From Candidatus Gottesmanbacteria bacterium (GTDB taxonomy: Bacteria > Patescibacteriota > Microgenomatia > UBA10105 > UBA927): 64,000 nucleotides of DNA. Both the position numbers and the translations under genes were made by a program. Location: the NCBI GenBank assembly GCA_963701185.1, contig OY969569.1:549486-613485 (forward strand), read 5' to 3'. Position 1 is the stretch's first letter, and each line of letters opens with the position of its first letter. Under the pieces are notes generated by a model. The model ran no database searches. It saw only the letters and a list, made by a program, of their open reading frames with translations, and was not told the DNA's origin. Shown here piece by piece: positions 10,150 through 63,873 of the stretch.

Positions 10150-12761
<2,612 letters not shown>

Positions 12762-14174: not shown

Positions 14175-14183
14175 TACGCTCCT

Positions 14184-14357: not shown

Positions 14358-14363
14358 CGCTGT

Positions 14364-14876: not shown

Positions 14877-14926
14877 CATACCTCTTGTTTCCATAAAACG
14901 GACCTCCTATAATGGTTATATAACCT

Positions 14927-15694: not shown

Positions 15695-16190
15695 GACGTG
15701 CAATGTTCTACCCGTCCACGAGGGTACCCTCGAATAGCTTGCTGTGGCTTGCTAATTCCTTCGCATTTCAACATTTTTCACTTCAACGGCCTGTAAAACA
15801 CGGTTGTGGGACTATGTAATGCGGAGTGCGCGGTTGTGGAGGACAAACTTGGCTTGATAAATGCTCTCCCGCTCATCAGACTCACTGGATTTGCGTGCAT
15901 ACAAACAGTATGCAATTGTTGAGGTTTCGGTCGTTATGATATCCATAGGCGTATATGTTTTTTCAGGCGTTTTGACGTCATAAAGAACCGATCAATATAC
16001 ACCCGGTCATGCGTCAGAAGATACTTATAAAAATACCGTTCACACCTGTTCACCCGCTTTTCAAGGATCGCTTTTTCTCTTTCCTTTTCCATCAGGGTAT
16101 ACAGTACCGCAACGGTGGGTGAAGTCTAGAGGGAAAGAGCTATAAGGATAGAACTACGGTAGGGATTAAAAGCCACAACGTTAATCTGAT

Positions 16191-18065
16191 CTATTTTGAA
16201 GATCCGTTGAGTAACTGTTTTTTCAATTTCAAATACCTCTCTGTAAAATATACTCCATTTTGGGATTCTCTTAAATCAAACCCAAAAGCACGTCTACTAA
16301 CGGCAATAATCGGTGGAGCTTGTATTCGTTTAAAATAATTATTCTTAAAAAGCTTCCATTTGTGCTCTAAATCAGCAATAAATTCATTTGCTGTAGGAAA
16401 ATATTTATTAACCAACCCTTTTTTTATCATTAATGCCTCTTCCAACTTTCCACTTTGGTATAAGTCTAAGATGTATTCAGGATCACGTCTAAATTCTATA
16501 AAAGCTCTCATTAGCTTGTCATGATACGGATAGAGAATCGGATCTCCCATCCCTTTTGTAACATCCTGTTTACTACTGAGTTCCGCGGAGGGCACAACAT
16601 CGATAATCTCTTGAGGGATAATCTTCTTTCCATGAATTTTATTAATGTACTTTGCCAACTGATAGATCTCCCATTTATATAAATCTCCAAGCGGAGCAAT
16701 TGCCCCGTTAACATCCCCATATAGCGTAGAATACCCCAACGCTATTTCGGTTTTATTGCCGTTGTTTACGAATAATGCTCCTAAACTGGCAGCGATACCA
16801 GCCAATACTCTGCCACCTCTGTCTCTGGCCTGAATATTTTCTGAAACAGCCTCCGTTACCGAAAATCCGCCGTTGTTGAGCTCGTGAACCGTTAAATCTA
16901 CAGACTCCTGTATGGGAAATACGTGATAGTTAATACCTAGATTTTCTGCCAGCTTCTTTGCTGCGGTCCTTGTCAGATTGGAATTGAATTTTGACGGCAT
17001 ATTCACGGCATGGACATTTTCCTTACCTAATGCTTCTGTCAGCAAACATGCCGAAACCGCCGAATCAATACCACCGCTTATGCCAATAACGACTTTCTTG
17101 CTTAATCCGTTAAAAAATTTTCTGATTCCGTAAATCAGTCCCCGGTGTAATTCCTCCGTATCGCGTTCGTCGGATGAAGGAAGGGATTTGATTTCGGCTG
17201 TTTTTGTCAAACCCACTACAACGTCAACCGTTTCCTCCTTATATTCATTTGCGGTTATCATGATAGAACCGTCGGGATTATATACCGTTGTTCCACCGTC
17301 AAAAAGGAAAATATTTTTACCATTATTTTGGATACCAACATTATTATCATAGATAAATGGAATAGGGTCTTTTTCGAGAAGCGCCCTGACAATCCTATGT
17401 CTTTTGTCATTTTTTCTCCATGTCCATGGAGATGCTGACACATTGACGATAACTTCCGCACCGTTTCTCACTAAAATATTAGTTGGGTTAACGGCATAAT
17501 CATTGCACCACATATCTTCACACAGAATAGCCCCGACCATAATAGAATTTTTATCGATTTTGATAGGAAACGGCTTCAGAAGATTATTTAAACTTACCCC
17601 TCGTTCTGCCGCCAATTTCGACATTGAATAAAAATGCCGTTCTTCATCGAATTCCCGATATTTGGGCATGAGTGTTTTATATGTATGTCCATCGAACACA
17701 CCATTAGGTACCCATTCACCTTCCTGAGCAATATGGACTGCATTATATTTTCTCGTTCTCCCATCCTCACCAATTTTGCTAAAATCGGCTTGAACATTTC
17801 CCCACATAATCGCAATTCCTGAGCTTGCAGCAAGAATCCGCTCGTTAAACCCCATCAAATCAGCGATAAAACTATCATTTTCCCATTCATCACCCAACAA
17901 ATATCCCGGAACTGCCATTTCGGGGAAAATAATAATATCAATTTTTCTCTTTTTCGCTAACTCTGTTTCCTTAAGAATTTTTGCAACGTTCACATCAGGA
18001 TGACCGGGAGATACATCCATTTGTGTTAAGGCAAAATTAATTTCTCGATTCATGGCAAAAAGCAT
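16191..18065 (-). CDS. nadE: Glutamine-dependent NAD+ synthetase (N-terminal nitrilase/CN-hydrolase domain plus NAD synthetase domain).
   Basis: CN-hydrolase motifs (FPEMAVPGY, active-site Cys region) and the PP-loop GISGGIDSAV. Confidence 0.9.
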   Translation of the reverse strand: MLFAMNREINFALTQMDVSPGHPDVNVAKILKETELAKKRKIDIIIFPEMAVPGYLLGDEWENDSFIADLMGFNERILAASSGIAIMWGNVQADFSKIGEDGRTRKYNAVHIAQEGEWVPNGVFDGHTYKTLMPKYREFDEERHFYSMSKLAAERGVSLNNLLKPFPIKIDKNSIMVGAILCEDMWCNDYAVNPTNILVRNGAEVIVNVSASPWTWRKNDKRHRIVRALLEKDPIPFIYDNNVGIQNNGKNIFLFDGGTTVYNPDGSIMITANEYKEETVDVVVGLTKTAEIKSLPSSDERDTEELHRGLIYGIRKFFNGLSKKVVIGISGGIDSAVSACLLTEALGKENVHAVNMPSKFNSNLTRTAAKKLAENLGINYHVFPIQESVDLTVHELNNGGFSVTEAVSENIQARDRGGRVLAGIAASLGALFVNNGNKTEIALGYSTLYGDVNGAIAPLGDLYKWEIYQLAKYINKIHGKKIIPQEIIDVVPSAELSSKQDVTKGMGDPILYPYHDKLMRAFIEFRRDPEYILDLYQSGKLEEALMIKKGLVNKYFPTANEFIADLEHKWKLFKNNYFKRIQAPPIIAVSRRAFGFDLRESQNGVYFTERYLKLKKQLLNGSSK

Positions 18066-18181
18066 TATATATCACTAGTCTATAAAATATCTAACTTTAT
18101 CGCCTAATAGAGCCTTCCGTGTATTAGGGTTTGAGTAAAAATGGAGAAATGTATGGCTTTAATAAATGGCGATTTTTACTT

Positions 18182-19228
18182 TTATCTATATAGCGATAAA
18201 TAATCTACCATCTTCTGCCAATACCGTTGCGGATCTTTTACATCCATAGCAACTTGGATTGTGTGTAGTCCAAAATCTTTATTTGCCATATACTCACGAG
18301 CTGTTCCGATTGCTCCCGTCTGATCTACCATGACTTGCATGGGATAAATTTCAAAATTCCCTGGATCAAGTTGAACAAGTTGTGCAGTTAAATCATGTAT
18401 GGCAGCACCATCAAAATTGATTCTATTATATGGAGGTCTTCTATTCCCTCTTGTATTTTCAGGAAAAGTGAAGAAATTATAATATGTAGAATCCGAACCA
18501 ATGAATGTTTTCATTATACCTGCCATTGATTGGGAACCTCTTAATTGCAATTCTTTATAGAGCCATTCAAATCTATCTCGTGTAAGCCCAAGTTTCGGTT
18601 TTTGTGTAAGATCAATGGGAACAAGAGTGAAGGGAATTCCTCCTAAATTACAGCTTCGTAAAACCATTTCTAATGCTTGTGGATCATTAGACAAATTCCA
18701 TTCTACATTCATGCTAAAATTACCTTCTTCAAACAAAGTTCCCCCCATTACGGTAACGCTTTTTACTTTCCCTTCCATATCTGGACGGGTAATCATTCTT
18801 GCTAATTCTGTTACCGCTCCTAATGAAATTACGTGAGCTGTTGCCTCTGGATTTGCTGCCAAATGATCATAAATTACTCCAGATGGTTCTAATGTCCGAT
18901 TTGAAGATCTTTGTATTCCTTCCATTCCATTCGCACCCATAATAAAATCAGCATTTCCTGAATACGCTAGTTTTCCATGTAAAGCTTGCTCAGCTCCAGA
19001 ATAATAGAATCGTTCTGGAAAAGACGCATCAGATTGACGAAGTTCATCAATAAGTGTTCCTAATGTAAGAAGATTTTTCCCAGTCTGTTTGGTTGAATCA
19101 TTACCATAAATAGCAATTGAATCAATTTCAGTAAATTGTTCGGAAGCAGCAGCGGTAGCCGCTAAGACAGCGACTGCGTCATCAATACCAGGATCAGTAT
19201 TTATAACAATCTGTTTGTCAATTTTTAT
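18182..19228 (-). CDS. Inosine-uridine-preferring nucleoside hydrolase family protein. The N-terminus is recovered upstream of the listed ORF, and the start codon is unclear.
   Basis: In-frame extension upstream of MGANG gives IKIDKQIVINTDPGIDDAVAVLAA (the DxDxxxDD Ca-binding motif). There is no ATG/GTG/TTG in frame after the upstream stop; candidate starts are ATA/ATT at about 19228/19222. Confidence 0.65.
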   Translation of the reverse strand: MKIDKQIVINTDPGIDDAVAVLAATAAASEQFTEIDSIAIYGNDSTKQTGKNLLTLGTLIDELRQSDASFPERFYYSGAEQALHGKLAYSGNADFIMGANGMEGIQRSSNRTLEPSGVIYDHLAANPEATAHVISLGAVTELARMITRPDMEGKVKSVTVMGGTLFEEGNFSMNVEWNLSNDPQALEMVLRSCNLGGIPFTLVPIDLTQKPKLGLTRDRFEWLYKELQLRGSQSMAGIMKTFIGSDSTYYNFFTFPENTRGNRRPPYNRINFDGAAIHDLTAQLVQLDPGNFEIYPMQVMVDQTGAIGTAREYMANKDFGLHTIQVAMDVKDPQRYWQKMVDYLSLYR

Positions 19229-20343
19229 AGTAGTTTCATTCGAGGATTATCGATATATTTTCGTCCAACTTTCGCAATTTCTTTTTTTCCAACTTTTACA
19301 ATATCTGCGGTAAAATCATTTTTACCATCAAACATTGCAGAACCAACAGCATACACATCTACTGGCGTATTTTTTTGCTCAAACCAAAGAATTTTTTCCT
19401 TATTAAATCCTCCAGAGGTAATAATTTTTACATGAACGAAGCCTTTTTTATTTAATGCCTCTCGTACCATTTTTACTAATGTAGGATTTACCCCGCGTAA
19501 CTCAGTTTTACTTTCAGAAGGTCTTTTAAGACTTTTGTCTACCATGTTTTCTGATGTATCCAATCGTATTCCCCACAATTTCCCTCCAAATTTTTCTGCG
19601 GCTTGTAGTGCAGTTCGAACACAGTCATTCTCAAAATCTACAAGTGCAATCAGGTGCCTTTTTGGAAAGTATTTAGCATATTGGCTGGTCGTTTCAATTG
19701 TATCGCCGTTATTAATAGCAATGAGTGCATGGGGTATTGTCCCCACTGCTTCACCTTTAAACCATTTACCCTGTGCTTGAGTACAAATATTTGTTACTCC
19801 TCCAATTCGCGCAGCGTAACCATCAGCCTCTTGATTAAGAAAGTAGTCAAACCTGTCTGCAAAAAATAATACGGGTTTTCCATTTGCCGCGGTAACTATC
19901 TTACTGGCATTTGTTGCAATACGGGTTTGTCTCGCCAATATCCCAAGATATAACGACTCTAAATGTGCAAAGTAGGAATAGGAGCCAGTTATATGCATAA
20001 CTGGCTCTCCTTTATTTATAATCTTTCCCTCAGGAAGTGTTTTTATTGCTAACGTGTCATATTTGGACACCCACATAGAATCTTCAAAATATCCTGTTCC
20101 AATCTTTAGAAGTTCTATTACTTGATTTATTCCACACAATGTTGCGTTGTTTTGTTTTTGGAAAATTTGCATGGTAACTGATTTAAGGTTATTCTCGTGG
20201 AGAAGAATTTCTTTTGTCCTATTGAAGTACACAGCAGAATAATATCCCTTTCGAATTTTTTTAATTGTTGAGTTATTCCAAATTTTCATAATAAGCGAAA
20301 CATAATTGAGTGGATAAGCAATTACCTTCACTGTACATGGCAA
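19225..20343 (-). CDS. Nicotinate phosphoribosyltransferase family protein.
   Basis: The blocks VGTIPHALIAI and GIRLDTS (GxRxDSG-like) match NAPRTase-family proteins. Confidence 0.7.
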   Translation of the reverse strand: MPCTVKVIAYPLNYVSLIMKIWNNSTIKKIRKGYYSAVYFNRTKEILLHENNLKSVTMQIFQKQNNATLCGINQVIELLKIGTGYFEDSMWVSKYDTLAIKTLPEGKIINKGEPVMHITGSYSYFAHLESLYLGILARQTRIATNASKIVTAANGKPVLFFADRFDYFLNQEADGYAARIGGVTNICTQAQGKWFKGEAVGTIPHALIAINNGDTIETTSQYAKYFPKRHLIALVDFENDCVRTALQAAEKFGGKLWGIRLDTSENMVDKSLKRPSESKTELRGVNPTLVKMVREALNKKGFVHVKIITSGGFNKEKILWFEQKNTPVDVYAVGSAMFDGKNDFTADIVKVGKKEIAKVGRKYIDNPRMKLL

Positions 20344-20391
20344 GTATTATATATCGACTTTCCGATATAAAAATGGCCAGTTTTTCTAATT

Positions 20392-21930
20392 TTATTTTTG
20401 TGAACGAAGAATAATCGCCGCGTGACGAAGCGCTTTAGTAAATTCTGCTGGATTTCTTAGCACTATATCAGCCGAACGTAAAAATTCAGGTGCATCTTTC
20501 GTCATATCAAGATTACCCTCAATACCAATAACAACGCCCCGTCTCATCTTGGTCACTTCTGCAATTGGTGTGTCTCCAAACCCATCCGCCACAAAACCCC
20601 AGGTTCCTTCTAGTTTTTCTGCTGCTATTCCCTTATGTATTATTTTTCCGTCTAATGTCCCTTTGATTCCAACTATAGCAAGATTTCCATTTTCTTCGCT
20701 TGGTTGCATTCGATAAAAGTTAACAGCGACATCTCTGTCATAACTAAGTCCATGTCGGTCTGCTATTGTTCGAAACACCGGTTCAAATATTGTAGAAACT
20801 ATCTCAGCGTCATGTGAAGTATCTTCATCATATTCAAACCAAAATGAAGATCTACAGTCTCCTTGCCATTGATAATTACCGGCACAGAAGGCAAATTTAC
20901 CTTTTTGTGTTGCTACTCGAACATCGTGCCACCTTGAAAGAAATCCCGCGTGATTTTCCAATACGCCCCGCATATTTTCCATGAATAGTCTATGGTTTGG
21001 GTGTCCGAGATATTCGATTGCACCGTGTTGGACTATTTTTTGACCCTCTTCTAAAATAGCCGGGCCGGAAAGTTGCAATCCTTGTTCACGTAAATAGTTT
21101 GTGACATGTATCCCTCTGCCTGTCGCAGGGCCAATTATTATCCCTTGAGCTTCAAGAAGCTGAAGTGTTGGGATAATATCAAGCGTGGTAAATCGAGGGT
21201 CATGAAGGCTATCTGCATGGAAAACTACTCCGTCCATATCCAAAAGTAATTGAGGTTGCGTTTGTGATATGAAATGATTAGCCAATAACTCACCCGCCCT
21301 TTTAACTATTGGCTCTCGTTGCGCTGCCTCTTTTTTGTCAGGAACTTGTTGAAACCGGTCAGTAGACATAAGGAGAAGTATATCAATATAGGCAGCTATT
21401 GCGGGGCCTACGAGATCGGTTATATCCTCGCCTGCCATCACTTTGGCTCGCACCTCCGTTGATGAAACAGCTACTTCATTTACTCCACTTATAGGAACCA
21501 TTCCCTTCAGTAAGTTTTCCATCGGATAATTTGGCCTTGGATAAACGTAAACAGTAAACTGTTCCAGCAGCTCACGGTACTTATACCATTTAGGGAAACT
21601 TGCAATGTTATCGCTGCCAATGACCCATGCAAATGTGTTGGAGGGCTGCGATTCCTCAAAATGTCTTAAAGTTTCATAAGAATAGCTTGTGGTTTCCTTT
21701 TCTAATTCATATTTTTCAATTCTAACTGGTTTTTCCCAAAAATCTTGAACAAAAAGTTGAAGCATCGCCAAACGATGATCCCCCTCAGTTAACGATTTAG
21801 AAAATGCATGTTTTCTTGCCGGGATTAACCATACTTCATCCGCGGTATATTTAGCAAGAAGGCCGGACACGATTTCTCGGTGACCGTTGTGAGGAGGGTT
21901 AAAGCTGGCACCCACAATCTCAATGTTCAT
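20392..21930 (-). CDS. nadD: Nicotinate/nicotinamide-mononucleotide adenylyltransferase fused to a C-terminal HAD-like hydrolase domain.
   Basis: N-terminal GASFNPPHNGH (HxGH nucleotidyltransferase), a C-terminal LLLDMDGVVF (DxDG HAD motif I), and later HAD blocks. Confidence 0.75.
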   Translation of the reverse strand: MNIEIVGASFNPPHNGHREIVSGLLAKYTADEVWLIPARKHAFSKSLTEGDHRLAMLQLFVQDFWEKPVRIEKYELEKETTSYSYETLRHFEESQPSNTFAWVIGSDNIASFPKWYKYRELLEQFTVYVYPRPNYPMENLLKGMVPISGVNEVAVSSTEVRAKVMAGEDITDLVGPAIAAYIDILLLMSTDRFQQVPDKKEAAQREPIVKRAGELLANHFISQTQPQLLLDMDGVVFHADSLHDPRFTTLDIIPTLQLLEAQGIIIGPATGRGIHVTNYLREQGLQLSGPAILEEGQKIVQHGAIEYLGHPNHRLFMENMRGVLENHAGFLSRWHDVRVATQKGKFAFCAGNYQWQGDCRSSFWFEYDEDTSHDAEIVSTIFEPVFRTIADRHGLSYDRDVAVNFYRMQPSEENGNLAIVGIKGTLDGKIIHKGIAAEKLEGTWGFVADGFGDTPIAEVTKMRRGVVIGIEGNLDMTKDAPEFLRSADIVLRNPAEFTKALRHAAIILRSQK

Positions 21931-53548: not shown

Positions 53549-55602
53549 GTATTAATTTTGCACAACCGGTATGTGTTATGTCCCAAAACCGTACTGTGTC
53601 GCCTGCCGTACCGGGAAATGAAAGCGTGGCTGATACATCGGAAGATTGAGAAATCCACGGAATCATATAGGTTTCATTTTTCCCGTCGCCGATACTCCAG
53701 ACGAGGTTTTGTTGAGTAATACACCGGATATCGTCTGCCGATACGGAAACATTCAGTATCCGAAGGGCATTGGGAATACGAACGTCCACCCGATCGGTCC
53801 CGCGAAATACTGACGTCTTCGCACGCAGTACGTCTGTTCCGATCGTTTGCCGCGTACCCGTCATCTTTGTGTGCGTACTGTCATTTTTCCAAATTTTGGC
53901 GATCACGACGCCGTCCACTTTCACCTCGTACACCGGCTTAACAAACGTTTCCAGATAGTTATAGGGAAAAACTGCCGGCGGTTTAGGATAGACAATGGAA
54001 GCGATGTATTCCCCTTTCCCGTCAAATCCGGAAAAATACGACCCTATCCGTATGTCCGGCCGAAGCCAGGTCGGCGAAAGAGCAAGCATCGTGCCATCCA
54101 GATGTGCCAAACGTGCATCTTTTTGGGCATGGGCATCCATCCATGACGCAAGCTCCCGGTATGGCGCATCATAAAGCGTTTCCCACGTATACAATCCGAC
54201 GGATTGGGCCCCTTTGAGACCTCCGATAAACGAATTGAAATAGAGGTGTTCATAGGGATGCAGCCGGACCAGCAGCACCACGTGCACGAGGATAAACATG
54301 CCAAAAAATATTCCGTAGAAGATACGCTTTCTTACGCGCTTCAGTATCCATGCACTCCCCGCCCCGACCAATACGGCAAATGCGGGGAGAAACTCCATAA
54401 AATGTCTGATCGATCCGAATACTTCGGAGGTCTGCCAAATAACGCGAATGAAAGGCACAATAAACCAAAGAGCGATAAGCAACCCCGTCGCATTTTTCGC
54501 GGTATATTTTTCTGAATATCAATCCGACGGCTCCTAGAGATGCCAATATCAGCATAATTGGCGGCGACATGGAAAAGAAAAAAAGCACGGCCTTGGCGTC
54601 AAACCCGCCGAAGAGCGGGGTCGGAGACGGCTGTTGTACCCGCAGATCCCGTACGGCAAGCGTTGCATAATAACTGAAGGTATTCAGAAGTTTATATACT
54701 GTTTGTGTCCAATAAAACGGATATGCAAGAATAAGGAGGATAAACGGGATGATGACGCAAAGGACGCCATACAGAATTAATTTTCGGAACGTAAAACGCG
54801 TATGTAATTCAGACGTATACCATATCCATATGGTCCACGGTACCAATGCAATCGGCGCAAATAGAATATTCCATTTTGTCCCCAATGCCATAAAGACCGA
54901 AAGTATGCACAACACGAGCCAATCGACGGACAACCGTCTGGTGACGGTAAAATACCAGGAAACTACTGCCATCGTGTAAAATCCCATCTGCACCGGATCT
55001 TTGATATTAAAATGGCTCTCCGCAAATATCACGGGATACATTGCCAGAGATACGACCGCTATGATTGCGGCAAATCGTCCAAAAGCATCCTCAACGAACA
55101 GATAGACGAATACCAATGATAGTGCAACGACGATAAGAGAATATACCTGATATCCGTCCACGTCCGACAGAACGCCGAGCCATTCATATGTCACCCGGTT
55201 GACCGCCGCCATAAGCATGTCGGATACGGCAGGATGTCCCTGATTTTCCGTAAGCTCCCATATGTTTGCTGTCCACGCATCGTTCTTATAGATGCTGATG
55301 CGGCGGCCTGCGGCAGTTTCTTTATTTTGATATGGAGAGATTTGCACGACAGGAGAAAAGAGTTCTTCTGACGCATTCGGCTTATAGACAGAAATCCGCT
55401 GCCCGGGGGTAAACATGACCGGAGAACGGGCGGCAGGGATACCAAACTGTCCGGACCTCCCCAGGATACGCTCCAAAAAATATTGCCCGCGCAAAAAATG
55501 GAACGGGCTGTCCTCATGCATGCCGTAGTGGGACATGGTTCCCACACCAACAATAAAGAAGGCTCCGGCGAGAATCCATGGAAGAAATTTCTTCATAAAC
55601 AC
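53520..55602 (-). CDS. Second polytopic GT-C (GT39/PMT-like) glycosyltransferase with a large C-terminal extracytoplasmic domain, split by a frameshift near 54480-54540.
   Basis: The N-terminal ORF has more than 9 TM helices and DE-containing first-loop motifs, and its tail after GLIFRKIYRE is nonsense. The second ORF continues in frame upstream of its TTG (KNATGLLIALWFIVPF). The switch is at AAAAATGCGACGGGG. Confidence 0.55.
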
Positions 55603-55662
55603 GTATAGACTATAACAAATTTTGGTACAAATTTGTAAAAACTATGAAACCCAGCCTCATGT

Positions 55663-56283
55663 CTATGGACCGCCGGCAGATAGCGTGGCTGACGCTGAAG
55701 CTTCCACGGTTACGGTCGGGACCAGTGTGGGGATGGCGGACGACGTTGCGGTTACGCCAAGGATATCCGAGACCGGTGGTACAAGAAGAGTCGACGTCGA
55801 ACCGGTTCCGTCTATACTCTTCCCCACAATCGTCCTCCCGCCGGAAACCGTCAGGGCAAACCAGTTGTATGTCAAATCCCGCGGCACCGGACCGTTAAGG
55901 ACTATGCTAAAGCCGCTGGTTGTGACATTGGTTACGGCGGCCTGCACGCCCTCGGCAAGAAATGCGCTGTTTGAAGCTTGCGGCAACACCAACGTAATGG
56001 TGACAATAGGCGGTGTATCAAAGGAACGTTCAAACGGTACGTCGACACTCATGGTGGACTTCGGAATGACCGCAATACCAGCCGAGTCTGAACCTACCGT
56101 CACGTGTCCCTGGAATATGACATCACTCAATACTTTCAGCACACCGTTGACGGTTACCTGCCCCTGAACAATAAGATCCTGTACAAATGTCGCAATCGCA
56201 TTAACAACAAACGGCCCGTTAAATGTGCTTGCTCCGGAGGCCACTATGTCGCCCGTAACTGCAAGTCCACGGGTGGTAAACAA
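55663..56283 (-). CDS. Probable frameshifted C-terminal continuation of the collagen-like giant protein (beta-helix-like repeats), or a separate small paralog.
   Basis: It overlaps the giant ORF's last 40 nt in another frame. The [23 protein letters not shown] / [10 protein letters not shown] segments resemble the giant protein's C-terminal [27 protein letters not shown] units. Confidence 0.45.
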
Positions 56284-59200
56284 GATCCGACATGTTGGGC
56301 ACTTGCCGTCGCAAGCGTACTATATAATGCAGACAGATTTGAAAGTGTGTCGGAATAGATTTCAAGTCCTTCAATCTTGTTGGCCCGGATGCTATCCGCT
56401 GTCACCATCCCTTTAAATACGGCGTTCCCTGAACTATCAACGGTAAAGATATCCGCTCCCGCATTTCCTTTCACCGCCAACAATCCGTTCTCCGGCGCCA
56501 GTTCAATGGTAAGCGCATTGTTGATAGGCCGAATGACGTTAAGTCCCACCGTATTGATTTTCGCTTGCTGGGATTCTATAAACCCGGCCTTTAAGTTTGC
56601 GATGACGCTTTGCGCCCACGCAGAAACAGCGCTCACGGGAGACCCTGTCTCTGTCTTTGCCTGATACGTGGTAAAGTAATCGACATTTGCATCCGGATAG
56701 AGGAGCACTTTGTTTAACATGTCCCCGGTAAGGTCACCTTGACTGGCCAGCTCATACCAATCGGTTTGAACTCTGGCAAGCACCATACCCACGTCTGCGG
56801 GAAGCGATTGCTGCGGCGCATCAGGGTCCCGCGTTTCCACTCCGGTCCACGGTTCCAGGGCCCAGCCGACAATCCTGCCCGTGGTCGTGGCTCTTGCGGC
56901 TATCCCGGACACTGAAGATATTGTCAAAGGATCGCCCGGCGAAACGGGACCATTTTCAAGGGATGTTTTCACCCACACCTGACCGAGCATACCGACGTCT
57001 GCATACCGCGGGTCGCCTTTTTTCGTTAACTCTTCCCACCCTTGCTGTACATAATCATTAAATCCTGTCCCGCGGGTGGTCACAACACCCAACATCCAAT
57101 CTCTGGAATTTGCATCCGCTTTTGTTACTTTGTACGTTGAAGAGCGGGATACCATCATGACATCGCCGGGCTCGCTTCCTCCGACGGGATCCTGATCGAA
57201 ATATTCTGAATAGTCAGCCCAGCTGTTGACTCCCGACTTAAATGTGTATGAATTGGAGCCGCTGCGTATCCAAATACGGCCGCTGGTTGCGGCGGTACCG
57301 ACGTTCCCCAGTTTCAACTCTCCGCTTACCACGTTTGTGGCAGCAGGTGCCGCACCGTTATTATCAAAAAAGACCACGTGCGTATCCGCCACGGTGTTAC
57401 CGAGGTTAATGGTGGTTGCGTTGGCACCTGTTGCCGTTCCAGTACCAATATTGACCGTCACGATACCGCTTGCAGGACTACCGGTACCGATATTAAGTGT
57501 ATTTGCGACATTTCCTGTACCAATGGAAATGATTTTGGCGTTAGCGCCAGTGCCAATCGAGAGCGCACCTGTTCCGTTGGTATCAATAGAAAGAGTCTCA
57601 TTGGCATCCGCGGTCGTGATGGTGGCACCGGCATCTCCTGCATAACCCAAAGTCAGATCATCGGTATAGAGATCTGTTGCAATAGCTGCATCCTGATAGA
57701 GATACGTTCCACCGTCAATCCAATAATTTACACCGCTACCGGTAGCTCCAGTGGGGCCGGCGGGTCCGGCCGTTCCCGTAGCGCCGGTTGATCCTGATGG
57801 ACCGGTAGCCCCGGCCGTTCCCGTGGCTCCTGTTGCACCTGTGGGGCCGGTAACTGCCGCACCCTGATTTCCCGTGGCTCCGGTAGAGCCTGTGGGACCA
57901 CCTGTTCCGGCTGATCCGGTTGCTCCGGTAGAGCCTGTGGGACCAAAGTTTTGTCCGGTTGGACCGGTAGCGCCGGTGGGACCATTGGCCCCTACACCTC
58001 CACCTGTTCCAGTGGCTCCGGTTGCACCTGTGGGGCCGGAAGAACCGACACCGCCTTGTGTTCCTGTCGCGCCGGTTGCGCCTGTGGGGCCGGAAGAACC
58101 GACACCGCCTTGTGTTCCTGTCGCGCCGGTTGCACCTGTGGGGCCGGAAGAACCGACACCGCCTTGTGTTCCTGTCGCGCCGGTTGCGCCTGTGGGGCCG
58201 GATCCGCCTGCGGTTCCCTGGGTTCCCGTGGCTCCGGTTGCGCCTGTGGGGCCGGATCCGCCTGCGGTTCCCTGGGTTCCCGTGGCTCCGGTTGCGCCTG
58301 TGGGGCCGGAAGAACCGACACCGCCTTGTGTTCCTGTCGCGCCGGTTGAACCGGTGGGACCGGAGGATCCCGCGGTTCCCTGGGTTCCCGTGGCTCCGGT
58401 TGCGCCTGTAGGACCGGATCCGCCTGCAGTTCCCTGCGTTCCCGTGGCTCCGGTATTACCTGTGGGACCCGATCCTCCCGCTGTTCCCTGAGTGCCCGTG
58501 GCTCCGGTATTACCTGTGGGACCGCCTGCTCCGCCTGTACCGGCTGATCCGGTGGCTCCGGTGGCTCCGGTTGAACCACTAGGACCAGTCGCACCTGCAG
58601 CTCCGCCTTGTGAACCGGTTGGACCGGTTGCGCCGGTTGGACCGCCTACACCATTTGCACCTGTGGAACCCGTTGGGCCATTAGTTCCTGTGCCTCCGGT
58701 TGAACCGGTGGGGCCACCTGCTCCGCCGCTTCCGGCAGTTCCCGTGCCTCCCGTTGAGCCTGTGGGACCGGATCCTCCGGCTGTTCCTTGAGTACCCGTG
58801 GCGCCGGTTGACCCTGTGGGACCGGATCCTCCGGCTGTTCCCTGAGTACCCGTGGCGCCGGTTGAACCGGTGGGGCCACCTGCTCCGCCGCTTCCGGCAG
58901 TTCCCGTGCCTCCCGTTGAGCCTGTGGGACCGGATCCTCCGGCTGTTCCTTGAGTACCCGTGGCGCCGGTTGACCCTGTGGGACCACCTGCGCCCGCTCC
59001 ACCTGCATTACCTGTGGCACCAGTTGAACCTGTGGGACCGTTACCGCCGGTGGCGCCTGTTGAGCCTGTGCGTCCTGTTGGGCCATTGGCACCTGCTGAT
59101 CCCGTGGCGCCGGTTGAACCGGTGGGACCGGAAATTCCGGCAACTCCCGAGGCACCGGTTGCACCTGTGGGACCGGATCCTCCGGCTGTTCCCTGAGTAC

Positions 59201-60881
59201 CCGTGGCGCCGGTTGAACCGGTGGGTCCGGCGCCTCCTCCTGCCGCTCCTGTGCCGCCGGTTCCGCCTGTGGGGCCTGCAGTCCCGTTATTCCCGGCATT
59301 CCCTGTGGCTCCGGTTGCTCCTGACGGACCGGCCCCGCCACCGATTCCTGTCGCGCCTGTGGATCCTGTCGGACCACTCGCTCCGGCTGACCCGGTCGCG
59401 CCGGTTGAGCCGGTCCGTCCTGTTGGGCCATTTGCTCCTGCAGATCCCGTGGCGCCGGTTGAGCCGGTGGGACCGCCTACACCGTTTCCTCCGGCTGATC
59501 CCGTGGCGCCTGTTGAACCTGTGGGGCCACCGGCACCTGCTCCTCCGGCAGTTCCCGTGCCTCCGGTTGCACCAGTCGGACCGTTTGTGCCGGTTGCACC
59601 CGTGGCGCCGGTTGAACCGGTCGGGCCGGCATCACCATTTGCGCCGGTTTCCCCTGTTGCACCCGTGGGACCCGAACTGCCGGACGCACCGCCGCTCCCT
59701 CCTACACCTGTTGCACCGGTCGGGCCAGTGACGGACGTTCCGTTTGTTCCGTTTGTCCCATTCGTTCCGTTTGTTCCGTTTGTCCCTGCCGGACCCGTGG
59801 CGCCGGTTGACCCCGCACTGCCGATCCCGCCGGCTGACACAAGCTGAGTAAGCAACTGGGTTAACCCTCCCTGAACATTCGTAAATTGGGGAATAAGTTG
59901 AGCGAGGTTTCCGACAGCTCCTACGGCAACCCCCTGCGGAGATCCCAACCTGACAGTCCCCTCATCCAAATCTCGCTGGGCAACGACGGCGTTTGATACA
60001 AACGCCCCCGGTTGACTATACTCAGGATTTTCGTCCGTCGTAACACCTAATATATTAATGCTCATATCTCCTTGGCTCTCAAAATATAATTTCAGTATCT
60101 CCCGCTCCGTCAATAATGTTGCCGGATCAGGCGAAGTCAAAGTCGGGGTAGCTACCACCTGCGATAGTTGACCCCGCGGCGATACATACCCTGTTACCTG
60201 CTTTCTGTCGGCATATTCAAACAAACGAAACCCTCCGACCAATGCTCCGTTGCGGATGGTCGCGTCGCGGAATTCCGCCGGCAAAATCGTCCCATCCGGC
60301 AACCGTATGCCTGCAATGAGCGGATATGCTATGAATGCCGTTTCACGCGCTCCCTTTTTCGTCATAAACAGGACGGATTTATCCTCTATTTCCGCCATCA
60401 TGCCGTAATCCCCGTTGGGATAATGGAGGGTCACATCTCCATCAAAATGACCGTCTATCAGAATGCCCTGATCTACCACTGCATAGGAATACGATCCGTC
60501 AATCCGGGTAACGACGACAAGAAACGGTCCGGAAAAATCGCTTTTAGCAAACACATTCGCCGTGAGATTGGATATCGGCACGGGAACGGTTTTTTCCGGC
60601 GGCCGCAGATCCAGAGAAGTGATGTACATGGGGACATTCACCCCTCTACGGAAAACCGTGATGCCTACGGACAAGAGAATGATAATGAACAGCAATGCAA
60701 AGATGGAAACTGTCCCTGTTTGCGTTTGTATGAATTGGTACGAAATGGTACTTTTTTTAGTATAAACTGGTAAAAACCTGCAAATCCGTGTTTTTGCAGC
60801 CACAAACCACCTTCCTAATAAAATGAGAATGCCGCCCGAAGGCGGATTTGCGGAGGGTACCGAGGTAAAAAAAAACCTCAT
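56244..60881 (-). CDS. Giant (at least 1545 aa) membrane-anchored collagen-like protein. It has an N-terminal anchor and globular domain, about 780 aa of Gly-X-Thr triplets, and a C-terminal domain of about 410 aa.
   Basis: TM helix [18 protein letters not shown]. Uninterrupted [22 protein letters not shown]... (G-X-Y with Thr at Y, Pro/Ser/Ala at X). The C-terminal domain has Gly/Thr/Asn beta-helix-like repeats. The 5' 190 nt may be non-coding (alternative starts TTG at about 60695 or ATG at about 60628). Confidence 0.8.
57480..59790. repeat. Collagen-like coding repeat tract (9/18/27-nt periodic GGN-CCN/NCN-ACN units).
   Basis: Seen directly. Long near-identical blocks (e.g. GTGGGGCCGGAAGAACCGACACCGCCTTGTGTTCCTGTCGCGCCGGTTGC at least 3 times). 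It generates many Pro/Val-rich shadow ORFs on both strands. Confidence 0.8.
60815..60845 (-). terminator. Terminator/attenuator-like hairpin CCGCC-UUCG-GGCGG followed by CAUUCUCAUUUUAUU on the minus strand.
   Basis: 5-bp GC stem with a UUCG tetraloop and a U-rich tail, 35 nt downstream of the regulator stop and inside the annotated 5' end of the giant ORF. Confidence 0.4.
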
Positions 60882-62797
60882 GGACTCCCTCCCTCGCCCA
60901 CGGATGTGTGCTTCAAGGCATAGCTCAGTTCAAATATGAGCGCGGCAACTATGATACAGAGGATAATGAAACTTGCGACGATAATATTTGCCGTATTGGA
61001 AAGAGCATAAATTTTGTTAAAAGGGGCCTTCAGTGCAATCGCCCAATGGAGAGAGGAGTTGATGCTTGTATACACAATCAGTGAATAAATACCATCGTAG
61101 GTATCTCCCTGGGCCATGCCTGTTTTTCCCTGAATACCCAGCAGTGTCGGATCATTGGGCTCCGTATCCGTACCGATAAGCGAGGGAACCGGATGCATGA
61201 TCCGTTTCCCATGGCTGTCCAAAACCACAATATATTCTCCGCGATCCGTCACCGCGATCTTTTGCAATCGGGCGCTGATGGCATCCAGATCGACAGATGC
61301 GCCGAGTATTCCGACAAATTGCTTATCAGCGGTAAAAAGCGGCATTGAAATAATAATGACTTTCCGGTGCGCACGGTCTACGAGCGACTCAAAAACATCG
61401 GAAATATAGACGTTACCGGTATCCCGCGCCCGGATAAAGTAATCCCGGAACGATAAATCCGTCTGATCAAATGTCCCCAAGGGATACAGGAAAAGCCCTG
61501 TGCCGTTCTTATCCAATATGACAATCCGGCGGATACTGTCGCTGCTGTCAAACATGATGCGGCTCAAATTCATCAGTTCCGTTGTGTTGTTCTTTTGTAC
61601 CGCGGCAACCAGATCCGGATTTATGGACGCGGTCATGACAGTAGATTTAACGCTCTGGATGTCGGTTTCAATCATTGTACGGGCAAAATCCACTTTCTGA
61701 GCATCTTCCCGTTTGACGACGGTAACGACATTAAGCTGGCTGACATACACCATCAGAATACCTATAATGATCACGGCAGTTATTACTCCGAACATGCCGA
61801 TGGCAACACCCTGTGCTTTTCTGTTCCTGGTCATTGAGAGATTTTTCCATGACGGCAGATACATGCACGTCAACCCGACGATCATGAAATAAAACGAACG
61901 GGCCCAAAATTGATGTTGCGCGAATGAAAATCCCAGAAGGAAATACGTACCCGCCGCCACATACGAACAAACCCAAAATAGCGCTTTTTTCCGGTACAAC
62001 CCAAGCCAAAGGAGCAGGATAAATCCGAAACAGACAAAGGATAATCCTATTCCCAGGACAACCGGCGTCACATGCAGCGCGGCTGTTACAGCCATCACGT
62101 GGGAATCCGCGGGCGCGGCAAATGCCACGACCGGCGCGACCAAAGCCAGAAGTGTCAGAAGCAGGACAAACGGCATGATCTTCCCTAAACGGACAAACAG
62201 GGTAAGTCCGGTGATAAGCGTCAATGTTCCGTAGATACCTATGGCATCAATATCCCGCACCAGCACTAAAATGATCGTCATGATGATCCCGGCAACCACC
62301 AGGAGGCCGCGGAATACTTTGTGCCATGTCTGATGGGTATCGTACGCGAGATTGGTTAAAAGTATCCCTATTCCCCCGCCTATTAAGAGGATTCGTATTA
62401 TGGACACGACCGGCGTAACCGACTGAACATACACGGTGTCAAACGTCTGGTTAAAAAGAAACAACGCGGCACCGGATATGACTGCAGCAATACCGACAAA
62501 CCAATCAAAGATGTTTGCCGTCACGCCATGAGCCCGGCCGAATACTGAAAAAGAAAACCGCGATGCACTTTCATGCGGGGTGATGACTTCCGTATCCTGT
62601 ATCGCGACCGCATCGGTCATCGGACTTTGACCCTTGGAAATCAAAAGCAGCCGGTGTAATTCGCTTTGCGGAATGCGGAATCTTCCCTTTCCTACTCGAA
62701 TTCCCTTAATGCGATGTTCTTTGAGGAAGGTATAAATGCTGTTGGTGCTGTACCCCAATATTTCTGCGATTTGTTTGACGGTGTATGTGGCAGCCAT
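60878..62797 (-). CDS. Membrane-bound one-component regulator: N-terminal excisionase/MerR-like HTH, an 8-TM domain, an extracytoplasmic dCache-like sensor, and a C-terminal TM.
   Basis: The HTH is [37 protein letters not shown]. There is a long polytopic segment. The double Cache pattern is ...[13 protein letters not shown]...DLSFRDYF...[10 protein letters not shown]...VIIISMPLF...[10 protein letters not shown]...[16 protein letters not shown] final TM helix follows. The stop overlaps the giant-gene ATG (ATGA). Confidence 0.7.
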
Positions 62798-62937
62798 AGC
62801 CTCATTTTTTCTAAATTATTACAAGTTTACACAACTCTATATCTACTATGTAATAATAAATGGAGTGTTGTCAATAGGGTAATTAATCTTATCATTTTCT
62901 TATCATCCATGATATAATCACGAACACATACAACCAT

Positions 62938-63873
62938 ATGCTCTCACTTTCCTACACGTCTACACTTCAATTACGGGACACGCTCAATACCGTCAACCGA
63001 CTCCGGTCGCAGATTCTCACATTGCCCATTCCGCCGAAAACCGAAGCCAAACTTGCCTGGGAAGGCACGGCAATCCGGACATGGGCAACGCTCTCACTTG
63101 CGGGCTATGATATCCAGAAACATGAAGTAGCAACGATTCTTGCCAATCCGGTCAAGCCGACCCCTGCGGTTGCACGGATCCTAGGATTGCGGCGAACCTA
63201 TGATGCCATACACAGGGAATGGCGCGCCAATCCGCGACCTGTCAGCCTGTCGGCTCTGGAAATGCTGTATTCCTTAAGTTGCCCGCACGATACGGGATCA
63301 TTTTCGATCATTGAACCCGCACTCAAAGAACTTCTCTCGTATCTCGGAGCCCAGGAAGAACATCCTGTCATTGCCGCCGCCATTGCCCACATGTATATCA
63401 TGACGATACCGAAATTCACTGAGCCGGGAATATGCGCGCGACTGACCCATTATTTGTTTTTAACCAAATACGGCTTTGACATCCGCGGGTGGATCACTCC
63501 CGAACGGATCTGGCAAACGGATGCCGCAACGTATACGCGCTTCATCAACACCTACCAAAACGATCATACTATCACAAAATGGATCGAATATATTGCCCAA
63601 TCCATGCAAACGAATCTGGAAGCACTCGCCGCTGATATCACGGAATCCCGATTCCACATCGAATACCCGGCGTCATTCTGGACACTCTCCGACCGGCAAA
63701 AGGAAATTCTCACGCTTATGAATGTACCCAACGCCTCAATTACGAACAGATACATACATAAACGGTTCAAAGTATCTCAAATCACCGCCTCGCGGGACCT
63801 TGCGAAACTCACCGCTCTGGGACTTCTCTACCCGCACGGGAAAGGGAGGGCGGTGTACTATACGAAGATCTAG
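62938..63873 (+). CDS. Fic/Doc-fold-like protein with a degenerate FIC motif and a C-terminal winged HTH.
   Basis: HMYIMTIPKFTEPGICARLTHYL sits where HPFx[DE]GNGRxxR would be (His kept, catalytic core lost). The C-terminal LSDRQKEILTLM...ITNRYIHKRFKVSQITASRDLAKLTALGLLYPHGKGRAVYY is a wHTH. Confidence 0.45.
   Translation: MLSLSYTSTLQLRDTLNTVNRLRSQILTLPIPPKTEAKLAWEGTAIRTWATLSLAGYDIQKHEVATILANPVKPTPAVARILGLRRTYDAIHREWRANPRPVSLSALEMLYSLSCPHDTGSFSIIEPALKELLSYLGAQEEHPVIAAAIAHMYIMTIPKFTEPGICARLTHYLFLTKYGFDIRGWITPERIWQTDAATYTRFINTYQNDHTITKWIEYIAQSMQTNLEALAADITESRFHIEYPASFWTLSDRQKEILTLMNVPNASITNRYIHKRFKVSQITASRDLAKLTALGLLYPHGKGRAVYYTKI

Follow-up and report, generated by a model that had tools for sequence, protein, structure and literature searches.

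Within the window, that is, the whole 64-kb (64,000-nucleotide) stretch of a contig analysed here from Candidatus Gottesmanbacteria, an ultra-small and uncultured CPR bacterium, a gene on the reverse strand codes for a 639-aa membrane protein. To judge from its sequence and from that of its relatives, this protein would be a one-component sensor-regulator, tethered to the membrane and dedicated to a giant fibre that is collagen-like, anchored in the membrane and tipped with a lectin; its helix-turn-helix (HTH) domain would bind DNA repeats. This is the best explanation at hand and we lean, if only slightly, towards its being correct.

Architecture, topology and conservation of the sensor

The gene and the segments of its product, including its transmembrane (TM) helices, are as follows.

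60878..62797, - strand: sensor-regulator gene (ORF of 639 aa; Pfam and NCBIfam matches; 153 homologs; AlphaFold2 model)
62642..62797, - strand: N-terminal Xis/MerR-like winged HTH, aa 1-52, cytoplasmic (HTH_17 score, profile match to 4J2N, conservation)
62519..62641, - strand: disordered hypervariable tether, aa 53-93 (pLDDT < 50 for aa 54-93; identity 0.16)
61832..62518, - strand: 8-TM core, aa ~94-322 (invariant N-I-F-D-W-F-V-G at the entry of TM1, W-S-R-S-F motif in TM8)
61010..61732, - strand: extracytoplasmic double-Cache sensor, aa 356-596, between TM9 and TM10
60896..61009, - strand: TM10, aa ~597-634 (hydropathy, AlphaFold2 model)

Pfam and AlphaFold2 together give the order HTH_17, disordered linker, 8-TM core, TM9, dCache_1, TM10 and tail, with ten TM helices by hydropathy and in the model (pLDDT 83.3, pTM 0.72). 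The two Pfam domains are well above their cutoffs: PF12728 (HTH_17) at aa 5-51 with 36.1 bits (cutoff 27) and dCache_1 at aa 373-588 with 79.8 bits (cutoff 45). The NCBIfam profile TIGR01764 ('excise') also matches, with 33.7 bits for a cutoff of 28.8. The HTH is modelled as a winged helix (E4-6, H7-14, H18-26, E39-41, H44-50) at a moderate confidence (pLDDT 64-75), and its family profile matches the Xis protein of phage Pukovnik (4J2N; E 4.8e-5, residues 6-51), in agreement with the DNA-binding fold proposed by the sequence-only reading. Concerning the sensor domain, TM9 runs unbroken into the Cache stalk helix (aa 326-391) in the model, and the dCache has TM-scores of 0.8-0.85 with the ligand-binding domains of Mlp24 and PctA (Foldseek). 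No relative of the 8-TM core was found in Pfam or the PDB.

The sequence-only reading had described this combination of HTH, 8-TM core and dCache with the HTH as sole output, and both points hold. No Pfam match to HisKA/HATPase, MCPsignal, GGDEF/EAL or cyclase domains was found in the protein, of which only 18 residues follow TM10 by hydropathy; Trans_reg_C gave no match at E <= 1, and no C-terminal coiled-coil or effector-binding domain of the MerR type was detected with Pfam or in the AlphaFold2 model. Regarding topology, 10 K/R residues (RKK and a 13-residue stretch) are present in the short loops of the HTH side and none in those of the Cache side. By this positive-inside bias, the HTH is cytoplasmic and the Cache domain, flanked by TM9 and TM10, lies outside. 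The orientation first proposed is thus borne out, except for the word 'periplasmic': CPR cells are thought to be monoderm, so 'extracytoplasmic' is the safer term.

As for the ligand, the amino-acid motif of dCache_1AA sensors consists, in PctA, of Y121, R126, W128, Y129, Y144 and D173. In a by-eye alignment, R-D-Y-F of the sensor (R451, Y453, F454) resembles R-x-W-Y and a D/N occupies the 'S-V-D-L' position; the R is not conserved, the W is replaced by Y and the equivalent of Y121 is T or N. Judging from this alignment, there is no clear instance of the canonical pocket motif for amino acids. The sensing of a host metabolite, suggested by the sequence-only reading, is conjectural.

The sensor has 153 homologs, more than 115 of which are full length with both HTH_17 and dCache_1 (29-73% identity), and the recurrence of the same two Pfam domains indicates that the architecture is not due to chance. 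They are confined to CPR genomes of the Gottesmanbacteria and Roizmanbacteria type and amount to 42 species-level loci, all from CPR. The 8-TM core is carried by 193 proteins and is known only from this architecture; none of the 193 is long enough for an added output domain of the kinase, MCP or cyclase type. Family-wide, the mean pairwise identity reaches 0.82 in the HTH vs. ~0.35 in the other domains and 0.16 in the tether. The 11-residue recognition helix is invariant in 43 loci, and the focal type of HTH occurs exactly once per locus.

Promoter, repeat arrays and the junction with the fibre gene

The following features surround the sensor gene and lie at its junction with the fibre gene.

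62938..63873, + strand: divergent 311-aa gene with a weak C-terminal winged HTH (wHTH), beside the sensor gene in 33/42 loci
62845..62874, - strand: sigma-70-type promoter of the sensor gene (TTGACA, 18-nt spacer, CATAGT; 10/12 consensus match)
62815..62838, - strand: O1, TTGTAA direct-repeat operator candidate in sense orientation, past the -10 and ahead of the start codon (position weight matrix, PWM, scan)
60832..60845, - strand: GC-rich hairpin CCGCC-TTCG-GGCGG with T-rich tail (terminator-like), 33 nt past the stop codon and within the coupled frame
60722..60787, + strand: O2, inverted repeat before the membrane anchor of the fibre (19.1-bit site at 60764-60777 and 10-bp-phased degenerate TNGTA sites)
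60711..60881, - strand: coupled linker frame, aa 1-57 of the annotated ORF (opens at an ATG overlapping the sensor TGA, crosses hairpin and O2 and enters the fibre protein)
56244..60881, - strand: gene of the giant collagen-like fibre, annotated with 1545 aa (Collagen, 171 bits; synteny)
60651-60710, - strand: TM anchor of the fibre, aa 58-77, within the fibre gene
60444-60566, - strand: conserved juxtamembrane block of the fibre, aa 106-146, followed by the long G-x-y region
55663..56283, - strand: H-type lectin C-terminal part of the fibre (H_lectin, 32.7 bits)
55619..55642, + strand: O3, repeat in the 60-nt gap before the PMT_2-like gene (19.6-bit site and 5.7-bit phased neighbour)
54250..55602, - strand: PMT_2-like (GT-C) glycosyltransferase gene, downstream of the fibre gene with O3 immediately 5' of it (PMT_2, 28.4 bits)

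The sequence-only reading had pointed to the region upstream of the sensor gene as a place for operator repeats, and helically phased direct repeats were indeed found both by the sensor's own promoter and before the fibre gene. The same type of promoter is present in 39/43 loci, with a spacer of a normal 17-18 nt. The unit of the PWM is AAAC-TTGTAA-AAAC, with an invariant TTGTAA core, and only three sites of at least 15 bits exist on both strands of the window, namely those of O1, O2 and O3. Each of these consists of one strong site with weak phased neighbours (18.0 and 6.7 bits in O1), and a strict regular-expression criterion detects no phased array in the window. Among the relatives, arrays comprise 2-5 units with spacings of 10, 11, 22 or 32 bp. 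The O1 motif is 12-fold enriched family-wide, in sense orientation only, and 92 of 94 O1 sites lie downstream of the -10; phased antisense arrays occupy the sensor-fibre junction in 21/41 loci.

The distribution of the arrays follows that of the HTH. Phased arrays were found in 36/43 HTH-bearing loci vs. 0/5 independent loci whose sensor lacks the HTH (Fisher p = 0.0005), the latter being without TTGTAA repeats in all five cases; seven of the 43 HTH-bearing loci have no detectable phased array. The link between array and HTH is also supported by the combination of an invariant recognition helix, an invariant TTGTAA core and 82% identity of the HTH. By this association, we infer that the arrays belong to the sensor HTH. 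Helical phasing and the use of both orientations fit recognition of double-stranded DNA. The 311-aa wHTH protein was rejected as the array binder, since array density is independent of its gene, which is tracked instead by GATAAG repeats (at 62887-62906 in the window).

At the other end of the sensor gene, the five C-terminal residues that follow TM10 in the model (...GGSP) are encoded in such a way that the CCA codon and the TGA stop create the ATG of the next frame, so that the sensor gene and the collagen-like ORF overlap by four bases (ATGA). An overlapping start followed by at least 39 open codons was found in 34/41 loci vs. 12.5% of shuffles (p = 1.8e-24); in eight loci this frame is a separate ORF of 39-53 codons, the stop of which again overlaps the fibre ATG. 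A hairpin stands at the equivalent place in about 28-33 of 41 loci, with stems that differ in sequence yet remain complementary (mean dG of -10.0 vs. -5.9 kcal/mol in shuffles), and in one clade the hairpin is present and the junction array absent. That a terminator separates the two genes, the ATGA overlap being an artefact, was ruled out, the overlapping frame being open far beyond chance. From these sequence statistics, the predicted translational coupling of the sensor to the fibre frame is real. The coupling claimed by the sequence-only reading therefore stands as regards the overlap, though not as a simple one, the hairpin and the operator array both lying inside the coupled frame.

The tie to the collagen-like gene, also asserted at the outset, proved to be conserved: in 45/46 loci the sensor gene has the juxtamembrane block of the fibre downstream of it. 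The H-type lectin part is in another frame in the window (frame switch at ~56271-56280), is fused to the fibre in relatives and matches the C-termini of the giant ORFs in 16 loci. The PMT_2-like gene is a candidate co-regulated gene. A literature search on collagen-like fibres of Gottesmanbacteria or Patescibacteria returned nothing relevant.

Proposed mechanism and alternative explanations

A Xis/BldC-type winged HTH hangs in the cytoplasm on a flexible tether of ~40 residues from a 10-TM body, of which the double-Cache domain is the only large part outside the cytoplasm. Under the favoured explanation, several HTH copies, from clustered or dimeric membrane proteins, would bind the 10-11-bp-phased AAAC-TTGTAA-AAAC units head-to-tail. 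O1, past the TTGACA/CATAGT promoter, would hold the position of a roadblock or of autorepression; O2, in inverted orientation, would act just past the terminator-like hairpin and before the coding body of the fibre, and O3, in the window, would front the PMT_2-like glycosyltransferase gene. Allostery through the tether is unlikely because it is disordered and hypervariable. Input from the Cache/8-TM part would rather alter the number of HTHs available or clustered, hence array occupancy and transcription into the fibre genes, the input being either a small ligand or the state of the conserved juxtamembrane domain of the fibre. The stop-overlapping start and the open linker frame would couple translation of the sensor to that of the fibre anchor and so direct both to the same membrane site; it may also be that the hairpin terminator is suppressed only as long as translation of the sensor proceeds.

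The HTH-less relatives bear directly on how central this regulation is. In their five independent loci the fibre gene is still directly downstream, with gaps of -4, -14, -4, 0 and +87, which makes the sensor-fibre link older than transcriptional control and not limited to it. HTH and arrays look as if they had been added to an older partnership of the 8TM-dCache part with the fibre, or had been lost from it in some lineages. This retention counts against the regulator reading, since regulation would then not be the core function; the translational coupling of a regulator to its own target, which is atypical, counts against it as well. The sensor may be a physical partner of the fibre. Carried further, the 8TM-dCache part would be a membrane platform, anchor or chaperone of the fibre, with the Cache perhaps holding the juxtamembrane block, the coupling serving co-insertion, the HTH an accessory (transertion pinning or minor autoregulation) and no small molecule being sensed. 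Besides the five HTH-less members, the pairing with the juxtamembrane block (45/46 loci), the conserved coupled frame (34/41 loci), an 8-TM module never fused to a signalling output and a tether that cannot transmit allostery all agree with this possibility, to which we attach about half the weight of the regulator. It has to contend with the fact that the great majority of dCache_1 domains serve signalling proteins as ligand sensors (PMC4822843), and with an extreme HTH conservation and promoter-proximal phased arrays before three genes, which argue for real transcriptional control in those members that have the HTH. The two readings are compatible and not mutually exclusive. A more elaborate and rather doubtful scheme is that of a contact-sensing device: the 8TM-dCache body, joined to the base of the fibre, would read its state (assembly, load or host engagement), and this state would set the polymerisation of the tethered HTHs on the opposed arrays flanking the sensor gene, looping the locus and pinning it to the membrane; the coupled frame would admit transcription into the 5-10-kb fibre gene only during translation and insertion of the sensor, with no second messenger involved.

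The arrays might be bound by another factor, be it a global regulator of CPR cells or an HTH_17 paralog that is soluble, or might act as RNA, with the sensor HTH employed elsewhere, for instance in protein-protein contacts like the Xis-like TorI. One genome whose local sensor is HTH-less has a 7-copy TGGTAAA array before an unrelated 69-aa gene, hence another protein could bind the motif, and further arrays nearby stand before a GT5 glycosyltransferase gene and on the 3' side of the divergent gene. Yet none of the five HTH-less loci has an array, the neighbouring wHTH gene makes no difference to the arrays, and the sensor HTH is far more strongly conserved than the other parts of the protein. 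As for RNA, O1 and O2 are reverse complements and could pair, but O1 and O2 of one genome match each other no better than those combined from different genomes (mean rank 19 vs. 20 expected, RNAduplex), and this candidate was rejected; the region 55400-63100 holds no known RNA family at E <= 1 (Rfam), and phasing in both orientations speaks for double-stranded DNA. A coding role is contradicted by the differing frames in which the array is read, no peptide being conserved. As a whole, we regard a different role for the arrays as improbable. Finally, the family label of several sources, the TIGR01764 match above cutoff and the nearest solved relative, a phage Xis, would suggest an excisionase, acting as recombination directionality factor for a prophage or an integrative element. 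This origin is effectively refuted: the protein has 639 aa, is polytopic in the membrane and carries a sensor domain outside the cytoplasm, its chromosomal synteny with the fibre gene is kept across 42 species, no relatives exist in 2.9 million viral contigs, and no integrase is among the annotated neighbours of L046 (the only annotated HTH-bearing locus) or of the HTH-less L043-L050.

Relation to known systems and significance

ToxR, CadC and TcpP, which bind DNA at the membrane, combine one TM helix with a winged helix of the OmpR/PhoB type (Trans_reg_C) and with periplasmic domains particular to each family. The sensor shares with them an N-terminal cytoplasmic DNA-binding domain, a membrane span, a C-terminal sensor outside and the absence of a phosphorelay, so that the ToxR-like logic of the sequence-only reading is upheld; it differs by its HTH_17 head, its ten TM helices, including the unassigned 8-TM core, and its dCache_1. 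Its HTH resembles those of BldC, Pukovnik Gp37 Xis (4J2N), D29 Gp36 and phage 186 Apl, which are MerR-like wHTHs with neither coiled coil nor effector domain. Xis, BldC, Gp36 and Apl bind cooperatively to direct repeats that follow each other in tandem at a distance of about one helical turn, and they can also repress from intragenic sites (PMC5859096, PMC12266134, PMC7498355). The candidate repeats are likewise tandem, about one helical turn apart, variable in number and partly in transcribed or coding DNA; the sequence is TTGTAA here vs. AATT-N4-C for BldC and GCGGC for Gp36. Unlike these soluble proteins of ~60-90 aa, which oligomerise freely, the HTH studied here is tethered to a polytopic membrane sensor, and oligomerisation on DNA must therefore come from clustering in the membrane. 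Classical MerR proteins have a C-terminal coiled coil, an effector domain and a palindromic operator in a long spacer, in contrast to the direct repeats past the -10 and the normal spacer found here.

On the sensor side, the fold, the TM-Cache-TM placement and the continuous stalk helix are those of dCache_1 receptors such as PctA, Mlp24/Mlp37, Tlp3, KinD and DctB. In these, HAMP/MCP, kinase or cyclase domains follow TM2, whereas here only 18 residues follow TM10 and the only output lies far N-terminal, beyond eight more TM helices. A 2016 census of Cache domains found transcription-factor outputs to be rare among dCache_1 proteins (300/15,569; PMC4822843), and no characterised member of that kind with the layout of the sensor was found in the literature. 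ArnR and ArnR1 of Sulfolobus (archaellum and pili) are also membrane-anchored HTH regulators, in control of a surface-filament locus, although they are archaeal, non-homologous, with another HTH, C-terminal TM helices and no extracytoplasmic Cache (PMC6396743).

Databases mislead with the name 'excisionase family DNA binding protein' in the case of this family, whose 8-TM module, found in this sensor architecture only, was previously undescribed. The family provides a self-contained hypothesis, with a sensor, a DNA-binding-type output, a 10-bp candidate operator unit at mapped positions and a fibre target near glycosyltransferases, and this hypothesis can be tested with synthetic protein and DNA, cultivation not being needed. 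A large part of bacterial diversity belongs to the CPR (Patescibacteria), whose tiny genomes contain few recognisable regulators and whose members are mostly believed to be attached to other cells. Hardly any of them can be grown in culture and, to our knowledge, next to nothing has been established on how they sense their partners and control the structures by which they attach. The fibre is probably used by these cells for attachment, and the sensor is plausible as a direct switch linking outside signals to it. The tethered regulator, if true, would extend membrane-tethered transcription factors to an Xis/BldC-type HTH joined to a polytopic Cache receptor; the contact-sensing device, if true, would be a new feedback circuit of a surface organelle specific to CPR episymbionts.

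Domain architecture and family of the sensor

The sequence-only reading took the ORF to be a tethered regulator made of an N-terminal HTH, a membrane core of eight TM helices (8-TM core) and a double-Cache domain, an architecture borne out by Pfam, NCBIfam, AlphaFold2 and Foldseek.

60878..62797, - strand: sensor gene, ORF of 639 aa
Sensor aa 5-51: HTH_17 (Pfam, 36.1 bits, cutoff 27)
Sensor aa 373-588: dCache_1 (Pfam, 79.8 bits, cutoff 45)
Sensor aa 4-50: strand-helix-helix-wing-helix domain (AlphaFold2 model)
Sensor aa 54-93: disordered stretch (AlphaFold2 model)
Sensor aa 96-322: eight packed TM helices, the 8-TM core (AlphaFold2 model)
Sensor aa 326-391: single long helix, TM9 continuing as the Cache stalk (AlphaFold2 model)
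Sensor aa 601-634: TM10 (AlphaFold2 model)

The sensor also scores above the cutoff of the NCBIfam 'excise' winged-HTH model. The AlphaFold2 model, with 40 homologs as input, is confident (pLDDT 83.3, pTM 0.72) and its Cache domain is two-lobed. Among PDB entries, Foldseek paired this domain with ligand-binding domains from KinD, DctB and the amino-acid chemoreceptors Mlp24, Mlp37, PctA/B/C, CtaA and Tlp3; target-normalised TM-scores reached 0.85. These results establish the domain identities of the sensor. As for its topology, hydropathy analysis gave ten TM helices, and K/R residues in the short loops are confined to the HTH side (10, e.g. RKK, vs. none on the Cache side), so that by the positive-inside rule the HTH is predicted to be cytoplasmic and the Cache domain to face outwards. 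The checks of topology and fold proposed earlier therefore agreed with the initial claim, the N-terminus being modelled as a strand-helix-helix-wing-helix fold. Since only 18 residues follow TM10, the sensor has no C-terminal output.

The sensor family is deep but narrow. From 5.8 billion proteins, 153 relatives were retrieved, more than 115 of them full length (about 600-700 aa), with both Pfam domains and 29-73% identity; where a source is named, it is Candidatus Gottesmanbacteria. With each species represented by one genome, a scan yielded 42 sensor loci, all from bins of Gottesmanbacteria, Roizmanbacteria or the 'Patescibacteria group', and also matched bulk-labelled TPA records with the CPR gene order of these loci. 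No viral relative was found in 2.9 million viral contigs. When 1.84 billion representative proteins were searched exhaustively with a profile of the 8-TM core, only 193 contained it. Nearly all of them are 600-690 aa or so in length, the core occupying approximately residues 80-340, and it was never fused to a kinase, cyclase or chemoreceptor domain among these 193. Because size and core position are shared by practically all core-bearing proteins, the module is confined to this one architecture.

Many TPA_asm records titled 'uncultured Gammaproteobacteria/Pseudomonadales' (L006, L007, L009, L015, L019-L023, L025, L026, L028, L035 and L038-L042) hold this CPR-restricted module in CPR-like gene order, and their titles look like bulk labels, not real taxonomy.

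Conservation along the sensor, as read from a 40-sequence alignment, is very uneven: the mean pairwise identity is 0.82 in the HTH, 0.16 in the linker, 0.32 in the 8-TM core, 0.35-0.38 in the Cache lobes and 0.19 in TM10. The 43 loci examined all have the recognition helix G-[YF]-S-T-N-S-I-Y-x-F-L unchanged. Two more stretches of the sensor are invariant: N-I-F-D-W-F-V-G, where TM1 enters from the cytoplasm, and W-S/G-R-S-F, at TM8.

Fibre gene, junction and neighbourhood

In every locus with enough sequence, the sensor gene is followed by a giant ORF, usually G-x-y collagen-rich, which encodes the fibre protein. A 41-residue juxtamembrane block stands after the N-terminal TM anchor of this protein and lies 140-430 nt past the sensor stop in 45/46 loci, including those whose sensor has no N-terminal HTH_17 (HTH-less loci). 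Pairing and coupling of the sensor with the fibre gene are universal. No literature on these collagen-like fibres was found.

56244..60881, - strand: fibre gene, collagen-like ORF
55663..56283, - strand: H-type lectin part, in another frame than the fibre ORF, with the frame switch at about 56271-56280
62938-63873, + strand: divergent gene of 311 aa, adjoining the sensor gene in 33/42 loci

The giant proteins of relatives end C-terminally in an H-type lectin domain. Fibre and lectin form a single giant protein in L012, L014, L017 and L036 and are split in the window, a split that a frameshift, programmed recoding or misassembly of the repetitive gene could explain. Locus L034 carries giant collagen-like genes on both sides of the sensor gene (323-9742 and 11848-21660; 3139 and 3270 aa). 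Glycosyltransferase genes (WecG/TagA, GT4, GT5, PMT_2) surround the module. The 311-aa protein showed only a sub-threshold C-terminal wHTH (HTH_DeoR/HTH_11), the rest having no PDB or Pfam match; the module may have in it a second regulator, a soluble one.

At the junction, the conserved sensor C-terminus, ...SP* (CCA TGA) or ...S* (TCA TGA), yields an overlapping ATG. About 20-35 nt past the sensor stop, most loci have a GC-rich hairpin with a T-rich tail (60832-60845 in the window), whose stems vary by clade and always pair (CCGCC/GGCGG, CCCGC/GCGGG, GAAATCCGC/GCGGATTTC and others), with a mean dG of -10.0 vs. -5.9 kcal/mol in shuffles. The hairpin first suggested a plain terminator with an artefactual extension of the fibre ORF, a reading ruled out by the conserved open frame: from the stop-overlapping start codon, no stop interrupts it for 39 codons or more in 34/41 loci vs. 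12.5% expected (p = 1.8e-24), and the terminator-like hairpin is preserved within it. This coupled frame is fused to the fibre protein in about 25 loci, the window included, and in eight others it forms a linker ORF of 39-53 codons whose own stop overlaps the fibre ATG (a second ATGA). The claimed translational coupling to the collagen-like gene thus holds, the overlapping frame being kept open, but the junction is not a plain ATGA, as it contains the hairpin and a repeat array.

Promoter and phased TTGTAA repeats

A promoter with TTGACA, a 17/18-nt spacer and a CATAGT-like -10 precedes the sensor gene in 39/43 loci. The stretch from this -10 to the sensor start codon contains tandem direct repeats with the core T[TG]GT[AG]A, at 2.5 sites per 200 nt vs. 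0.21 in the remaining locus sequence and 0.12 for the other strand. AAAC-TTGTAA-AAAC is the unit given by the PWM. Spacing between sites peaks at 10 bp (25 cases), 11 bp (7), 22 bp (14) and 32 bp (4), which is helical phasing. Of 94 sites, 92 lie 3' of the -10, the first ones about 10-30 nt past it, placed as a roadblock or autorepressor site would be. A second array, oppositely oriented, was found 60-130 nt past the sensor stop codon in 21/41 loci; one clade has the hairpin and no junction array. The frame in which the junction array is translated varies by clade (YKFLQV vs. FTSFYQF), so the array is conserved as DNA and not as peptide.

62874-62845, - strand: sensor promoter, canonical TTGACA / CATAGT-like match
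62887-62906: direct repeat TCTTATCAT, two copies at an 11-bp distance, reading GATAAG on the complementary strand, upstream of the sensor -35
62825-62838, - strand: O1 strong site, 18.0 bits, 5' of the sensor gene
60764-60777, + strand: O2 strong site, 19.1 bits, ahead of the fibre membrane anchor
55629-55642, + strand: O3 strong site, 19.6 bits, in a gap of 60 nt ahead of a PMT_2-like glycosyltransferase gene

These three sites are the only PWM matches of at least 15 bits on both strands of the 64 kb, and all fall within the sensor-fibre cluster, O1 being oriented opposite to O2 and O3. Each consists of one strong site with weak 10-bp-phased neighbours, so that the window itself has no array by the strict criterion and the case for arrays rests on the family. 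Across that family, the search for operator repeats upstream of the sensor gene, proposed from the sequence, did find phased repeats, represented in the window by the single strong O1.

The O3 region (55619-55642, + strand) lies where 60 nt separate the lectin ORF from the PMT_2-like gene (54250..55602, - strand), and O3 suggests that this gene belongs to the same regulon. Extra phased TTGTAA arrays occur 3' of the divergent 311-aa gene in L007, L010-L013 and L036 (around 8600-8720) and 5' of a GT5 glycosyltransferase gene resembling starch synthase in L015, L020 and L023; the regulon may include the glycosyltransferase cluster. The hexamer GAGGCT lies at 62801-62806, 2 nt before the sensor ATG, a spacing too short for a typical Shine-Dalgarno sequence, and again at 55650-55655; it recurs just ahead of the inverted O2 and O3 arrays in many loci, including the junctions of L019, L026, L028, L037 and L041.

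An RNA role of the repeats is not supported: O1:O2 pairs from the same genome are no more complementary than cross-genome pairs, the element is found in both orientations, and it has no Rfam match.

Candidate binder and proposed role

Three association tests point to the sensor HTH as the likely binder of the candidate arrays. A phased array is present in 36/43 HTH-bearing loci and in none of the five independent HTH-less ones (Fisher p = 0.0005), where no TTGTAA site was found up- or downstream (maximum PWM below 9 bits). Array density is alike with or without the adjacent 311-aa wHTH gene (2.5 vs. 2.9 sites), which argues against its product as the array factor. The occurrence of the GATAAG repeat tracks that gene (28/34 loci with it vs. 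1/9 without), so the repeat is probably its promoter or operator. Both the HTH and the TTGTAA motif are invariant from Gottesman- to Roizmanbacteria. That the arrays belong to another factor is nevertheless conceivable because L044 (GCA_041643075.1), whose local sensor is HTH-less, has seven tandem TGGTAAA repeats at 6125-6205, abutting a TTGACG -35 and preceding an unrelated acidic 69-aa ORF; a TTGTAA-type repeat is, to judge by this array, also used elsewhere. Given the distribution between HTH-bearing and HTH-less loci, we consider such a factor improbable.

A profile of the family's HTH aligns along its full length with 4J2N, the excisionase of mycobacteriophage Pukovnik (E 4.8e-5). The sensor head belongs to the Xis/BldC class, but the sensor is not a small soluble protein, and the chance that 'excisionase' is its correct label is close to nil. 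According to PMC5859096, PMC12266134 and PMC7498355, the wHTH-only proteins Xis, BldC, D29 Gp36 and Apl bind tandem direct repeats cooperatively and head-to-tail, at sites about one helical turn apart and variable in number, and proteins of this class can repress from intragenic repeats. The likeness to ToxR noted earlier, shared with CadC, holds for the general logic and not for two defining features of that family, the sensor having neither the OmpR-type winged helix nor the single TM helix. Its dCache_1 is genuine, but the output usually found downstream in dCache_1 receptors is absent. The sensor is nonetheless akin to known types, since dCache_1 proteins with transcription-factor outputs form a rare class (300/15,569; PMC4822843) and in Sulfolobus the HTH protein ArnR, bound to the membrane, regulates a surface filament (PMC6396743). 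What it adds to these is the 8-TM module, a defined candidate operator and an unusual coupled junction.

At HTH-less loci, neither hairpin nor array is present and the fibre gene begins on or at the sensor stop codon, the juxtamembrane block following 156 nt downstream in 4/5 and 252 nt in L049. HTH, O1, hairpin and O2 hence travel together and would be regulation added to a sensor-fibre pair that is older and tightly coupled. In P0208, P0212 and P0214 (L047, L048 and L043), a short 'EYxQAV'-like stretch, possibly a remnant of the HTH, stands where its first helix would be, a hint at loss of the HTH in this branch and not at its gain elsewhere.

Two paralogous sensor-fibre modules occur in one genome (isolate nzgw408; L005 and L024), with sensors 44% and 32% identical to the window protein, identical recognition helices and TTGTAA arrays at both; cross-regulation between them would be expected.

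On balance we lean slightly towards a composite role, that of a tethered sensor-regulator whose HTH acts on the arrays to gate its own and the fibre genes. A mainly structural or assembly role, with the HTH as an accessory, seems rather unlikely, though less so than a separate array factor. In the favoured composite role, tethered HTHs would bind the arrays head-to-tail, autorepressing the sensor gene at O1 and gating transcription into the fibre and glycosyltransferase genes at O2 and O3. Input at the Cache/8-TM body would cluster, sequester or release the HTH instead of acting allosterically along the disordered tether. Coupled translation would bring sensor and fibre anchor to one place and may keep the hairpin terminator from acting. 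CPR cells are ultra-small, and a membrane-tethered DNA binder would be cheap in them, as their DNA always lies close to the membrane.
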